Assembly: GCA_965261735.1 (NCBI GenBank) | Contig: OZ253470.1 | Span: 2,080,001 to 2,144,000 of the forward strand | Length of the DNA: 64,000 nucleotides | Reading direction: 5' to 3' | From: Alphaproteobacteria bacterium | GTDB taxonomy: Bacteria > Pseudomonadota > Alphaproteobacteria > SHVV01 | In this document: positions 49,033 through 54,010 of the stretch, piece after piece | Numbering within the stretch: the first letter of the stretch is position 1 | Layout: the number at the start of each line of letters is the position of its first letter | Position numbers and translations under genes: made by a program | The notes under the pieces: model-generated | Told to the model about the DNA's origin: nothing | The model's database searches: none | The model's input: only the letters and a program-made list of their open reading frames with translations

Positions 49033-49036
<4 letters not shown>

Positions 49037-49959
49037 AGCCGGCCGCGCTGTTCACGAGCGACTACTACCGCGCCGAGGATTGGCTGCCGGCGCTCGCCCG
49101 GCGGCTACCCGAGCTCGAGGTTCGCGTCTGGCCCGATATCGGCGCCGCGGACGAGATCGACATCGCGCTCGTCCACAATCCGCCGCCGGGCTTCTTCGCC
49201 AGCCTACCGGGCTTGCGCGCCATCATCGCCATCACGGCGGGGGTCGAGAACCTGCTCGCCGACCCCGAGCTGCCCGAGGTACCCATGGCCCGCGCCGTGG
49301 ACGAGCGCTTCTCGCTCGACATGGCCCAGTACGTGGTGTTGCACGCGCTGCGCCACGCCCGCCACATGCCCGAGGTCGTGGCCCACCAGCGCGCCCGGCG
49401 CTGGCGCCCGATGCTGCCCCGGCGCGAGGCCACCGCCGGGGTCATGGGCCTCGGCGCGATGGGCGCCACAGCGGCGCGGGCCCTTGCGGCCGTCGGTCTC
49501 GGCGTCGCCGGGTGGAGCCGCACCGCCAAGGACATCGCCGGGATCGACTGCTATTCCGGCGCCCAAGGGCTGGGGCCGTTCCTCGCCGCGACCGATATTC
49601 TCGTCTGCCTGCTGCCGCTGACCCCGGCCACGCGCGACCTGATCGACGCTGAGATGCTCGGCCGCCTGCGACCCGGCGCCTGTTTCATCAACGCCGGGCG
49701 CGGCCACCAGGTGGTCGATGCCGACCTGCTGGCGGCGCTCGACTCGGGCCAGCTCGCGCACGCCACCCTCGATGTCTTCCGCGAGGAGCCGCTGCCCGCC
49801 GATAGCCCCTACTGGGACCACCCGGGCGTGACCCTCACCTGCCACAGCGCGTCCGACCCCAACCCCGACTCGATGGCGGTCACGATCGCCGAGAACATCC
49901 GCCGCGCCCGCGCCGGCCAACCGCTGCTCGACCCCATCGACCGCGCGCGCGGGTATTGA
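49033..49959 (+). CDS. ghrA: Glyoxylate/hydroxypyruvate reductase A-like D-2-hydroxyacid dehydrogenase
   Basis: GVMGLGAMG, LLPLTPAT, INAGRG, LDVFREEPLP. Confidence 0.82.
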
Positions 49960-49980
49960 GGGGGCCTGCTCCGCGGCCGC

Positions 49981-50216
49981 AAGGCCAGCCCTGAGGACAC
50001 AAGGCGTGAGGACATCAGGCATGGGGACGCGAGGCCGCCCCATGACGCCCGAGGCCGTCCATGAGGACATGAGATATGAGGAGGCAAGCCGCCCCATGAG
50101 GAGGCGAGACCAGCCTTGAGGACGCAGGCAGGCGATGAGGGCACAGGGCCGTAGGGCACGAGGACATGAGGCATTAGAACGGCGAGACCGGCCATAAGGA
50201 CGCAAGGCGTGACGAC
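49981..50216. repeat. Degenerate direct-repeat array, about 13 units anchored on TGAGGA(C/G), mostly 15 or about 20 nt long
   Basis: Unit starts at 49992, 50007, 50022, 50043, 50062, 50077, 50097, 50117, 50136, 50159, 50174, 50195, 50210. Confidence 0.85.
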
Positions 50217-50222
50217 TTCGCG

Positions 50223-50276
50223 TTGACAGGTGGCTTCGGCGCGGAGATACTAATAGGAGTTATACTCCTTTTAGTA
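50223..50276 (+). promoter_or_regulatory. Sigma70 promoter with an overlapping 29-bp palindromic operator
   Basis: TTGACA (50223-50228), 17-bp spacer, GATACT (50246-50251); palindrome TACTAATAGGAGTTATACTCCTTTTAGTA at 50248-50276. Confidence 0.75.
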
Positions 50277-50288
50277 GGTGTGAGACTC

Positions 50289-50687
50289 GTGCCAACCATC
50301 GAGCTGACCGAGGAAGTTTGGAAGGAGATCGCTCGACGGGGGCAATTCGGAGAGACCGAAGACGTGGTCTTGCGCCGTCTCTTCGGTCTCGAACAGATCC
50401 GCCACCCAAACCCCGCCGCGCCGGCCAATCGAAGCTCGCAGGGAACACCTCGCAGAAGATTCGCGACGGACCGGCAGTCGGTGTATTCGCGCGGTGATCG
50501 GTTGATCGTGTCCTACGAGAGTGGCGCACGCCAACAGTGGTCCCTACCGGCCCAGGACGACAAGCTCTCTATTCGCCGCTTGATCGACGAAGTGACGGTG
50601 TTCGGCCATGCGAACGGCGCCACTCACGGGCAGGTCTTGGCGCTCCGCAAATGGCTCACCGAACGCGGCTGGCACCTGACCAAGTAG
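50289..50687 (+). CDS. Hypothetical protein: SeqA-N/ribbon-helix-helix-like N-terminus plus an unrecognised C-terminal domain
   Basis: GTG start MPTIELTEEVWKEIARRGQFGETEDVVLRRLFGL resembles SeqA-N (MKTIEVDDELY..GESASDILRRML); Pro/Ser linker; compact C-domain. Confidence 0.7.
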   Translation: MPTIELTEEVWKEIARRGQFGETEDVVLRRLFGLEQIRHPNPAAPANRSSQGTPRRRFATDRQSVYSRGDRLIVSYESGARQQWSLPAQDDKLSIRRLIDEVTVFGHANGATHGQVLALRKWLTERGWHLTK

Positions 50688-50702
50688 CGACCGCCGCTGC
50701 CC

Positions 50703-51056
50703 TCAACCCTCGATCTGTTCGCCGGCCTTGGTGATTAGCCAGGCGAAGTCGCTCAGGTACACCGAGCCCTTGATCGTCGGCAGGACGAGCACGCTGCGCC
50801 GGTCGGCGCCGTCGCGCGACCGCCGTACGAAACCGAGCCGGCCCAGCGAATCGAGGGCCCGCGTGATCGCCGGCTTGGAGACGTTGAGGGTGGCGGCCAG
50901 GCTACCCGCCGTGTGCGGCTCCGGCGTCAGGTACACGGTCAGCATGAGCGCCATCTGCCGGGCCGAGAGATCGGGGCCGTCGCGGCGCACGTTTTGGACC
51001 AGCGCCTCGCGCCACAAATTGAGCGCCTGCCGCATGGTGTAGCTTGCTTCCGTCAT
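50703..51056 (-). CDS. MarR family transcriptional regulator
   Basis: DLSARQ, LNVSKPAITRALDSL, DRRSVLV. Confidence 0.9.
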   Translation of the reverse strand: MTEASYTMRQALNLWREALVQNVRRDGPDLSARQMALMLTVYLTPEPHTAGSLAATLNVSKPAITRALDSLGRLGFVRRSRDGADRRSVLVLPTIKGSVYLSDFAWLITKAGEQIEG

Positions 51057-51138
51057 GCCGCCTCTCCGCGGCTGCCAGATCGTTCCGGTTCCGGTTTAAT
51101 ATAGCACGGATTGCCGCCAGCGGTGCGGCGGCCGGCGA

Positions 51139-52462
51139 TCAGCCCGGATAACGCTCGGCGATCAAGGCGTAGAGTGCGCGCAAGCCTTGCGCCTCGCCGC
51201 CGAGGGGGCGGCCGGGCCGAGGTTTATGGCTCCAGGCATAGAGGTCGAGATGGGCCCAGCTCGCGGCACCGGCGACGAAACGCTGCAGGAACAGCGCCGC
51301 GGTGATGGCGCCCGCGAAGGGCGAGTCGCCGGCATTGTCGAGGTCGGCCACCCGGCTGTCGAGGACAGTCGCGGTAGGGCGCCCATAGGGGCAACCGCCA
51401 CAGCGGGTCGGCCTCGGCCTCGGCGTGGCGGGCGAGCGCGCCGGCGAGCGCATCGTCGGGCGTGAACAGGGCGGGCAGGTCGGGGCCGAGGGCGCTCCGC
51501 GCGGCGCCGGTGAGGGTTGCGCAATCGATCACCAGATCGGGCGCCTCCTCGCCCGCGAGCGCCAGCACATCGCCTGGCCGGATCGCATTGCCGGCGACGC
51601 TGTTCTCGACCGCCGGGATCAGCACCCGCAGCCGCACCGGCAGGCGCGCCGCCATGATCATTTGGGCGAGCCCGAGGACCGTGGCGGCGCCGCCCATGTC
51701 CTTCTTCATGAGCCGCATGGTGCGCGCCGGCTTAAGGTCGAGGCCGCCCGAATCGAAGCACACGCCCTTGCCGACGAGGGTCACCTTTGGTGCCGACGCC
51801 TCGCCCCAAGCAAGATCAATGAGGCGCGGCTCCCGCGTGCTCGCTCGCCCCACCGCATGGATGGCCGGCAGGTTTCGCGCCAATAGGGCGTCGCCGGCGA
51901 TGGTTTCGCAGGTGGCGCCGTGCGCCTGGGCGAGATCGGCGGCCGCGGCGGCGAGCTCGGCCGGTCCCATGTCGGCGGCCGGCGTGTTGATGAGATCGCG
52001 CACGAGGAAGACGGCGCGCACGCAGCGCACGACGTGATCGGCATCGGCCGCCGCCGGGGTCAGCAGGGTCGCGGCGTTCTCGTTCGCGCCCGCCTTATAG
52101 CGGGCGAAGCGATAGCCGCCGAGGGCGAAGCCGAGCGCGGCGTGGGTCGCTTCGCCGGCTTCAAGGGCGGCGTCGATGCGGTAGGCGGCGGCCGGCAGCG
52201 CACCCGGCAACACCGCATAGGCCCACGGGTCGATCTCGTCCGCAACCCCGAGGGCCACACCGGCAAGAACCCCGCCCTCGCCCGGCACCAGCAGCACATG
52301 GCCCGCCTTGGCGGCAAAACCCGCACGCTCGACCCACGCCGCAACGGCGGCGGGCTGCGAGCGCCGCCACGCATCGAGCCCGGCGGGCGTGAGCGGCCAA
52401 ATCGGGATGGCGCCCGAATCGGGCGCGGCGGGTGCGACGGGGGCGGCGGTGTCGTCGGACAT
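51139..52462 (-). pseudogene. Leucyl aminopeptidase (M17), catalytic NTDAEGRL segment deleted and frameshift near 51367
   Basis: LVGKGVCFDSGGLDLK, MKKDMGGAA, RPGDVL|ALAGEE, ATLTGAAR; C-terminus AGAITAALFL..WAHLD lies in another frame. Confidence 0.88.
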
Positions 52463-52686
52463 GGCACGGACCTGATATGTAGGCGGGGATAGGAGCGGAC
52501 TCTGCATCAACAGTCTCTCACCAGCCCCGTGCCGGCAACCCCGCGAGGCTCGGTATTGGTGCCGCCGAGGTGCGGCACCTAATCTCGGAGCGTCCGCCCC
52601 GCCGCGCGGGCACGTTGGCCCGCTCGCGCCTCGGCGCTCGAGGAGATCGGACGGCAACTCGCCGCGATTGCCGAGCCGGGCCGCAA

Positions 52687-53020
52687 TTAGCAGAGATCGA
52701 GGGGCTCGATCGCACGCAATACGGCGTCCGGTTGCGTGCGCGTCATCGCCATCAGGTCGTGCTTGTCGGGCGACACCTCAGACGGCGCGCCGCTATGGCC
52801 GACGACCACATCGTCCCAACCGTCGCCGTTGAAATCGCCGCGCGCGACGATCTCCAGGTAGCGCCCGCCACGCTCGGTTAGCACGACCAGCAATTCCGCG
52901 CTCGGCACTTCGACCAGCGGCGTGTCCTCGAAACGGCGCCATGGGACGCCCTTGTCGTTGGCGGCGCGGGCCCGACAGTACTGGTCATCGGAGGGGTTGG
53001 GCATCAGGACCGCCGGCAGG
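52687..53020 (-). pseudogene. C-terminal fragment of an exported protein with an FG-GAP-like Ca-binding loop
   Basis: ARGDFNGDGWDDVVV; N-terminus replaced by the transposase remnant. Confidence 0.45.
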
Positions 53021-53795
53021 TAATCTGCACGTGGACTGATGTTGTCGTTGGCCGGTGTGTCGGTTGCGCTGATCAGGGCCTTCCATGCGCGCTCGAAGCG
53101 GCCGGATTTGATCAGGGCGCGGAAGGTCAGAACAGCCTGTCCGCCGACGATCCGCCAGCGCATGCCGGAGCGCTTCATGCGCTGTGTCACCAGGGATCTT
53201 GTTGGCAGCCTCGACCACGCCTGAGCCGATGGCGATGCCCTCTTCCTTCAGGGCGTGGTAGCGCATGCGATGGCGATGCTTGCGGAAGAAGGCGAGTTCC
53301 CGCTCGGTCTCGGCCCGGTCCGGCGCAGCGGCGGCATCGCGAAGGTGGCGCAGCGCCCGGATCACCTTGGCGACGCCACGGGGATCGTGACGGAGGATCT
53401 CGCGGTACTTCTCGAACCAGCCGGGCGCCACGGCATGGTCGGACGCGGTTTGCAGATGTTCGCAAGCATGCCAGAAGTCGATCACCTCGGTTTCGGGCGA
53501 CAGGGTCTCCAGGAAGGTCCAGTTGTCGGCGGCGCCATCGGCGATAGCGACGATCCCGATCTCGGGGCGTGCTCGCCTGATGTGTGCGACTTCGCTTGCA
53601 AGCTGCGCCTTCAGCGTGAGCTTGCCGCTCTCCGGCATGGGGCCGAGATAGAGGGTCTTCAGGCGCTTGCCCTCGGCGTCGTGGAAGGAGACCGTGCCGC
53701 AGGCGGCCTCGCGCCAGGAGGCCTTGGCGCGACCGTCCTCGCCGGGTCTCAGCGGCACCATGACGCCGTCGAGGGAGACCGAGGCGTCGGCGGCG
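53020..53795 (-). mobile_element. ISKra4/ISLre2-like transposase remnant (5'-truncated, frameshift near 53195)
   Basis: VSLDGVMV, IADGAADNW, IDFWHACEHL, IGSGVVEAANK|LVTQRMKRSGMRW. Confidence 0.8.
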
Positions 53796-53891
53796 AGCGG
53801 CTCCAGCCTGTCGCGGCGCAGGACTTGGCCGACCAGGAAGATCGTTACAAGGGCGAGCACGATGACGCTTTCCATGGTTTCCTCCCATGTC

Positions 53892-54010
53892 TGAATGATG
53901 TTCACTCATACCAGAGAATTATACATCGTTTAAAACTATTTTTGAACAATGTCCATTTCCTTGGAAAAGGCGGATTCTCGCCCTGTTTATCCGTCGGTAA
54001 ACAGTGTTCA
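53892..54010. promoter_or_regulatory. Four TGAACA-N-TGTTCA-like operator palindromes in an AT-rich divergent promoter region
   Basis: TGAATGATGTTCA 53892, TATACATCGTTTA 53920, TGAACAATGTCCA 53943, TAAACAGTGTTCA 53998; next to the TetR gene. Confidence 0.65.

Follow-up and report, generated by a model that had tools for sequence, protein, structure and literature searches.

The 132-aa gene that lies between a ghrA-like gene and a convergent marR gene in the window (the whole stretch of 64,000 nt analyzed here) was horizontally acquired, and its product ends in an uncharacterized domain which also occurs fused to defense-type effectors. On balance, we favor the explanation that this is a mobile solo gene driven by a promoter of its own, and that the protein likely dimerizes through a SeqA-type N-terminal domain and likely represses itself at a palindrome, the C-terminal domain being a predicted nucleic-acid sensor of the anti-phage gene pool and the upstream repeat array probably a local minisatellite. 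This explanation draws on the insertion, the lower GC3, the enrichment of promoters and palindromes among homologues, the SeqA-N homology, the effector fusions of the C-terminal domain and the absence of the array from homologue loci. The features of the locus are collected in Table 1.

Table 1. Features of the locus between ghrA and marR (positions are those of the window).
Feature	Position	Strand	Remarks
ghrA-like D-2-hydroxyacid dehydrogenase	49033..49959	+	Left flank, host gene; PF02826 (E-value = 3e-43); NF012013 (E-value = 1e-60); GC3 0.93
Degenerate minisatellite-like array	49980..50222	.	7-, 8- and 12-nt units, YRAGG core, higher-order unit of ~35 nt; array absent from homologue loci
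Sigma-70-type promoter TTGACA-17-GATACT	50223..50251	+	Predicted; sole match in 49500-51200, 0.1 expected
29-bp palindrome, 13-3-13, one mismatch	50248..50276	.	Predicted operator, overlying the -10 box and the likely start site
Shine-Dalgarno-like AGGTG	50276..50280	+	8 nt ahead of the GTG start, which corresponds to the start position of homologues
132-aa gene	50289..50687	+	Converges on marR; GTG start
N-terminal SeqA-N-type ribbon-helix-helix domain, residues 1-35	50289..50393	+	Likely dimerizing; profile and Foldseek
Uncharacterized C-terminal beta-beta-beta-alpha-alpha domain, ~residues 57-132	50457..50687	+	Conserved basic residues, GAT.GQ motif
MarR-family regulator	50703..51056	-	Right flank, host gene, convergent; PF01047 (E-value = 2e-11)

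Insertion site and promoter

After the ghrA stop codon at 49,959, the array, the promoter, the palindrome and the 132-aa gene follow in this order before marR. The spacing between ghrA and marR is 0 to ~200 nt in all five genomes examined out of the seven of the bacterial family, compared to 743 nt in the window, and none of these five, in which the two genes are adjacent, has a match to the 132-aa gene. The GC3 of the ORF is 0.75, while that of its neighbors is 0.90-0.93. The comparison of the interval supports the inserted cassette proposed in the original prediction. Since single contigs from runs of three studies contain the whole stretch, it does not result from misassembly; one of these runs (X3) is nearly identical and possibly derives from the source sample. 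Neither a target-site duplication nor a terminal repeat was seen at the insertion.

It had also been stated that no transposase, cas or rep gene is adjacent. There is indeed no rep or par gene beside the 132-aa gene, but a split ISKra4-type transposase in two pieces (NF033572) is located 2 kb away at 52,687-53,905 on the minus strand, outside the insertion and separated from it by marR and an aminopeptidase gene. The second frame of the transposase continues into a stretch with an FG-GAP-like match. The aminopeptidase gene (M17; 51,139-52,657, minus strand) is split over two frames near 51,400-51,450, by a frameshift or a sequencing error, and the marR orthologue of genome G002 (L006, G002:C4 1666099-1666423) is frameshifted.

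One contig of a diverged organism (run X3 record 5, depth 2, n = 1) joins the end of ghrA to the apparent last ~20 codons of the gene; by eye, 36 intervening letters with an 11-nt exact match to 50,625-50,635 are followed by matches from 50,652. This suggests that a relative once had the gene between ghrA and marR and later deleted it with the array and the promoter. As the array, the promoter and most of the gene are apparently deleted there, the gene may be a dispensable passenger, which counts against the explanation that we favor.

Homologue loci (110) were retrieved via a peptide pattern of the N-terminus, derived from an alignment of 19 members (the metagenome part being 80 of 112); without one that lacks a profile match and 15 duplicates, 94 distinct loci were left, two of which match the N-domain only. 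The promoter of the window's copy and the near-perfect palindrome overlapping it were confirmed as first described; the palindrome hairpin has a z of -5.0 and its arm patterns have no second occurrence in the genome. A strict sigma-70 promoter is present within 90 nt upstream in 39/86 homologue loci compared to 6/246 neighbor genes (base-shuffled: 3.9 ± 1.7), and palindromes at p ≤ 0.05 in 27/86 compared to 21/246, in a comparison where the controls had fewer shuffles and kin are not independent. Homologues are thus enriched in palindromes, although not universally: the 47/86 loci lacking a strict promoter match and the 59/86 lacking a significant palindrome speak against the favored explanation. 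Given the enrichment of both elements in the family, the proposed autoregulation through a palindrome over the gene's own promoter is likely. Own promoters are frequent and an upstream gene ends within 40 nt in only 6/69 loci with a flank (crude ORF caller), so the gene typically starts its own transcript. It would arrive in a new host as a portable unit of promoter, operator and gene. In one RNA library, a contig covers 50,327-50,712 at a depth of 5.5, which gives a mere hint of expression because DNA can be present.

A SeqA-type N-terminal domain and an uncharacterized C-terminal domain

The resemblance of the N-terminus to the SeqA N-terminal/RHH domain, noticed at the outset, held up in both profile and structure comparisons. 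The profile of the family, from an alignment of 73 near-full-length members, matches residues 1-44 of SeqA (1XRX; E-value = 4e-7), and Foldseek superimposes the N-domain on 1xrx_A (probability 0.99, rmsd 1.7 Å over 35 residues, E-value = 0.41). The query alone matches SeqA_N weakly, under the Pfam cut-off (E-value = 0.027), and PF17206 (SeqA_N) is found at E ≤ 0.05, a weak level, in 43/73 members. AlphaFold2 (mean pLDDT 88.5) predicts a two-helix N-domain and, beyond a flexible linker, a C-domain that comprises three strands and two helices. This organization is similar to that of SeqA of E. coli (PF17206 and PF03925; PDB 1XRX, 3FMT), with its homologous N-terminal dimerization domain, flexible linker and separate C-domain. 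However, neither the query nor the 73 members match the SeqA C-domain (PF03925), the NCBIfam SeqA model NF008389 scores 15 bits against a cut-off of 185 and over residues 1-52 only, and the protein has 132 aa instead of 182. Moreover, it is sporadic and mobile, and SeqA sites are clusters of GATC, which the array does not contain. Without the SeqA C-domain, Ala25 or GATC, the 132-aa protein is outside the SeqA family.

Replacement of SeqA Ala25 by Arg is described to abolish filaments and to give dimers instead (PMC2691817). The query has Glu24 in this column, where Glu (25), Pro (22), Ala (11) and Val (10) occur among the 73 members, Glu, Pro or Val accounting for 57/73. The Glu at the Ala25 position makes a dimer more likely than a filament, and the SeqA-like polymerization that had been envisaged is not supported. 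At position 5 of the beta-strand the query has Glu where 44/73 members have Arg; this copy may therefore bind DNA differently or poorly, a further point against the favored explanation.

Self-repressing RHH regulators (the Arc/CopG type and type II antitoxins) have in common with this gene the RHH-type N-domain and the palindrome over the own promoter, but there is here an additional folded C-domain and no conserved toxin or regulated partner. Arc-like and VapB-like matches are weak and concern few family members. The protein is built like SeqA, with a dimerization domain, a linker and a reader, and its mode of regulation is likely that of an RHH autorepressor. The dimer formed by the SeqA-type N-domain would bind the palindrome, perhaps through its two C-domains as in SeqA, and negative feedback would keep this DNA-binding protein low in any new host. 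As for the domain that reads the operator, one promoter class (19 loci), with varying strand positions 3 and 5 and a fixed residue in a C-domain strand, offers a hint only, because promoter classes coincide with clades, and what sets the TGTGAT class apart may be just an extended -10 element.

The structure prediction proposed for the C-domain gave a confident AlphaFold2 fold (pLDDT ~97 for residues 61-130), but no fold match stands out. Among 48,161 chains, VIA places ribosomal proteins at the top along with a designed protein, with a Z of 6.4 at best (phage P7 reaches Z 4.9), and among known reader folds (SRA, EVE/PUA, winged helix, RAMA) none stands out either (best VIA Z 6.4). Foldseek against BFVD and PDB yielded nothing at E ≤ 0.001, which implies neither a new nor a different fold.

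The C-domain also behaves as a separate module. With phmmer, 177 proteins of a 50%-identity library were matched at E ≤ 0.001, the top match being ~50% identical. Among the 149 other proteins in the 150 of 177 matches listed, 99 are short with both domains, three long with both, 27 short with the C-domain only, 14 long with the C-domain only and six have the N-domain only. The 14 long C-only proteins comprise five with HSDR_N, one with Mrr_cat and HARE-HTH, one NucS-like, one with TIR and one with Hypoth_Ymh (HEPN-like in PADLOC), together with a weak PADLOC type IIG match, a weak CI-type HTH and three without a family, so that restriction-type nucleases, TIR or HEPN-like domains are fused to the C-domain in 9-10/14 long proteins among the matches listed. 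HARE-HTH is added to the N- and C-domain pair in P0147 and co-occurs with the C-domain in P0119, and in P0160 the C-domain follows an ADP-ribosylglycohydrolase. P0135 combines it with a more distant SeqA-N-like start. In P0141 it stands inside an 836-aa protein without a family match, the N-terminal part of which presumably resembles a phage head morphogenesis domain, judging by eye.

It was from contextual fusions that Iyer et al. came to predict RAMA and HARE-HTH as readers of modified DNA (PMC4738411). Like the domains described there, the C-domain is small, has been exchanged between nucleases of the REase-fold, Mrr and NucS-like types and is fused to SeqA-type domains; in contrast to them, it has no Pfam match to either and is a candidate sensor with no apparent methyltransferase or m6A link. 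By this analogy, it is likely a nucleic-acid-sensing module of the anti-phage and conflict gene pool. Since the C-domain probably recognizes nucleic acid for the effectors fused to it, the solo form can be placed in the same pool, where it would act as a sensor, a decoy or a DNA-coating factor, for example by sensing or coating foreign or modified DNA once repression is lifted. Against this stand the lack of a catalytic effector in the solo protein and the lack of any PADLOC match for the four solo proteins scanned (P0001, P0003, P0004, P0006). A bolder proposal, which we regard as doubtful, would make the C-domain a new nucleic-acid sensor of many anti-phage effectors and its combination with the SeqA-type domain an effector-less one-gene defense or decoy module, mobile among bacteria and archaea and equipped with a feedback promoter of its own and two tethered reading domains as in SeqA. 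No description of the solo family or of the C-domain was found in the literature outside supplements, and the domain-architecture supplement of PMC4738411 may include it.

Distribution and neighbors of the family

The family is sporadic, mobile, undescribed and without a conserved neighbor. Among 401 genomes of the class, only the genome of the window has a full-length match, 12 others matching mainly the N-domain, and homologues are found in MAGs whose titles name many bacterial phyla as well as two archaea. One of 72,556 plasmids, from Methylococcus sp. EFPC2, carries a homologue (WP_205434823.1) 52% identical to P0010, among toxin-antitoxin modules; none of 50,697 phages carries one. Searches with the single protein among 60 relatives and in viral contigs returned nothing, and word-index homologue searches missed the family, with one match and one longer protein among 8000 scored candidates. 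An Atlas search with the whole protein led to unnamed clusters (0.96), one of them with 15% SeqA_N.

The 485 neighboring ORFs fall into 440 clusters, the largest being common to five loci. In a scan of 90 hand-picked neighbors, some belong to defense, toxin-antitoxin or mobility functions (GmrSD, AbiEii, TOTE, Eco57I-type, NucS, HNH, PIN, DUF4160/2442, transposases, integrases), others are housekeeping genes and many have no family; that many neighbors are ordinary housekeeping genes weakens the favored explanation. Locus L088 adjoins an integron integrase, and attC-like hairpins were detected upstream in 2/81 loci and not at the window's copy, by a crude pattern-and-fold test. At L088:2128-4738 and L016:1515-2390, the homologues come after attC-like hairpins, and a recurrent 105-108-aa putative zinc-binding protein is encoded 11-13 nt downstream of them. 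Integron cassettes carrying promoters are known, as described in PMC8876359, and the few homologues after attC-like hairpins, one with an integron integrase, recall them. However, most homologue loci are not integrons, and an integron gene cassette was rejected for the window's copy, which has no attC-like site by the same crude test.

According to a different account, which we consider unlikely, the protein is an orphan regulator or antitoxin-like repressor that normally heads small, variable operons resembling toxin-antitoxin operons, the cargo being missing here so that only self-repression is left. In line with it, a co-oriented ORF lies within 40 nt downstream in 28/82 loci with a flank, including DUF4160/DUF2442 pairs and the recurrent putative zinc protein, VAPB_antitox is weakly matched by 8/73 members, and the plasmid copy sits among toxin-antitoxin modules. 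Yet this proportion (34%, by a crude ORF caller) is close to the 29% of the controls (70/242), no partner is common to more than five loci, and the fusions of the C-domain to nucleases, TIR and HEPN-like domains are left unexplained. A proper type II toxin-antitoxin pair was rejected, the next gene being the convergent marR and the family having no conserved partner.

The repeat array and the meaning of the locus

The degenerate array between ghrA and the promoter, as first noticed, was confirmed statistically. Its units (8-nt TGAGGACA-like, 7-nt YRAGGCR-like and 12-nt CGAGRCCRBCCA-like) form a mosaic with 96 repeated 6-mer pairs compared to 24.6 ± 6.6 (maximum 55) when the dinucleotides are shuffled 1000 times. 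The autocorrelation, which peaks at lags 15, 20, 55 and 70 (z 3.0-4.3), fits a higher-order unit of ~35 nt (12+8+7+8), the first and last copies of which are 79% alike, and TRF reports a period of 55 with 2.1 copies (score 127). The array is not extreme, as 83 of 37,830 windows across the genome are equally repetitive. Contigs of other studies differ from it by an 11-nt insertion after 50,149 (2/3) and by the absence of one base at 50,181 (3/3), which taken together restore clean 12-, 7- and 8-nt units, and the protein calls P0002 and P0154 (other assemblies), when compared, imply a further 9-nt length variant. Without the extra base at 50,181, one open frame spans part of the array and the gene, hence the gene calls of 180-183 aa elsewhere. 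These calls (P0002, P0154) run through the promoter, and we rejected them as probably over-extended starts.

The lack of an upstream array in homologues had been named as a result that would refute the predicted module, and none of the 94 distinct loci has a similar array: the highest motif count in all 416 kb of loci is 7 per 250 nt, compared to 16 here. Over the 270 nt that precede the promoter zone, repetitiveness exceeds z = 4 in only 2 of 78 loci with at least 200 nt (own locus z = 10.4), and both were rejected as arrays: in L066 the signal comes from a groEL-like gene with its Gly-Gly-Met tail, in L033 from an inverted-repeat element. Plasmids, phages and 400 genomes of the class gave only chance matches of 22-47 nt, and a three-unit pattern gave none in 151 genomes, a weak test, since the pattern misses the own array too. 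The array is not found elsewhere in its own genome, unlinked to the gene, as the original prediction had considered: blastn returned self matches only, and the two clusters with the highest motif density turned out to be acidic coding repeats. Absent near homologues and, as minisatellites do, varying in length between strains, the array is probably a local slippage minisatellite without a role in the function of the family. As the closest homologues tested for the array are only ~40-50% identical, a lineage-specific co-option of the array is conceivable.

The array contains six CATG (1.1 expected) and no GATC; near homologues neither site is enriched, and GATC is depleted upstream of them, so that the absence of methylation-site enrichment goes against the favored explanation. 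As RNA, the plus strand folds with a z of +0.4 and the minus strand with a z of -2.0 relative to shuffles, and no Rfam family reaches its gathering score. One RNA run has no cover over the array, nor over the end of ghrA, and hence is uninformative. On the results for folding, Rfam, PF02599 and PF01798, a structured RNA, a Csr sponge, TIGR or another Rfam family were rejected. Specifically, a Csr/Rsm small RNA with GGA repeats is countered by the fold and Rfam results and by the absence of PF02599 (CsrA) from the 98%-complete genome. TIGR-Tas systems are described as having a Nop-domain Tas protein beside the array and variable spacers between UG...CCA repeats (PMC12045711); here the ORF has no Nop match, PF01798 is absent from the genome, and each unit is a variant of a single YRAG-core monomer, without variable spacers and with CCA followed by TG directly or after 4 nt. 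An iteron or centromere (rep/par) module finds no support either, because the array is not kept with homologues and the flanks are ghrA and marR, with no Rep or ParA/ParM.

Similar repeats were looked for in viral DNA through the TGAGGAC pattern, a search that selects for this motif by design: 70/80 loci are triplet-spaced and 10/80 non-triplet, and by eye none is like the mosaic of the window. Viral locus L165 has TGAGGAC units of 8/7 nt, and the viral contigs L201, L221, L229 and L198 have intergenic, inverted TGAGGAC repeat sets beside a similar gene pair. A contig of 4769 nt (run X6 record 18, depth 2) matches 40 nt of the array (50,154-50,193), which may reflect a similar array in another organism, or chance. 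Other intergenic arrays of short units exist in the own genome (G000:C1, near 2643361, 4293361, 4191301, 234541, 229141 and 4497901), and several adjoin ORFs that resemble integrases, recombinases or IS elements, as labeled by eye from the translations.

Such arrays beside mobility-type ORFs, and viral loci such as L165, would fit an origin of the array as the relic of a larger mobile element, with origin- or packaging-type repeats of a phage or satellite, which brought the gene and was then deleted. We consider this improbable in view of the chance-level matches in plasmids, phages and class genomes, the design of the viral search and the lack of a target-site duplication or terminal repeat; it covers the origin of the array only, and is compatible with the favored explanation for the gene. 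Most improbable is the module first predicted, in which the protein polymerizes on the array as on iterons or a centromere, or binds it as RNA: the array abuts the promoter on its upstream side within the same insertion, is rich in CATG and has a parallel in the short TGAGGAC runs of non-coding phage DNA (the 10/80 non-triplet viral loci), but it has no counterpart at the 94 homologue loci, lies upstream of the promoter, folds as plus-strand RNA no better than shuffles and reaches no Rfam gathering score, and the protein has Glu at the Ala25 position and no adjacent rep or par gene. As the proposed array-protein system fails, the layout of the locus is probably a one-off.

The value of the finding therefore lies not in the array but in the uncharacterized C-domain, an unannotated, well-folding domain of 75 residues at the C-terminus of several unrelated defense-type effectors; other DNA-sensing domains came to light through the same kind of recurrence across unrelated effectors. 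The family also supplies dozens of predicted regulator-operator pairs and reuses the SeqA N-domain with a different C-domain outside the SeqA family, and its cultured carrier, the plasmid of Methylococcus sp. EFPC2 (WP_205434823.1), makes it testable.
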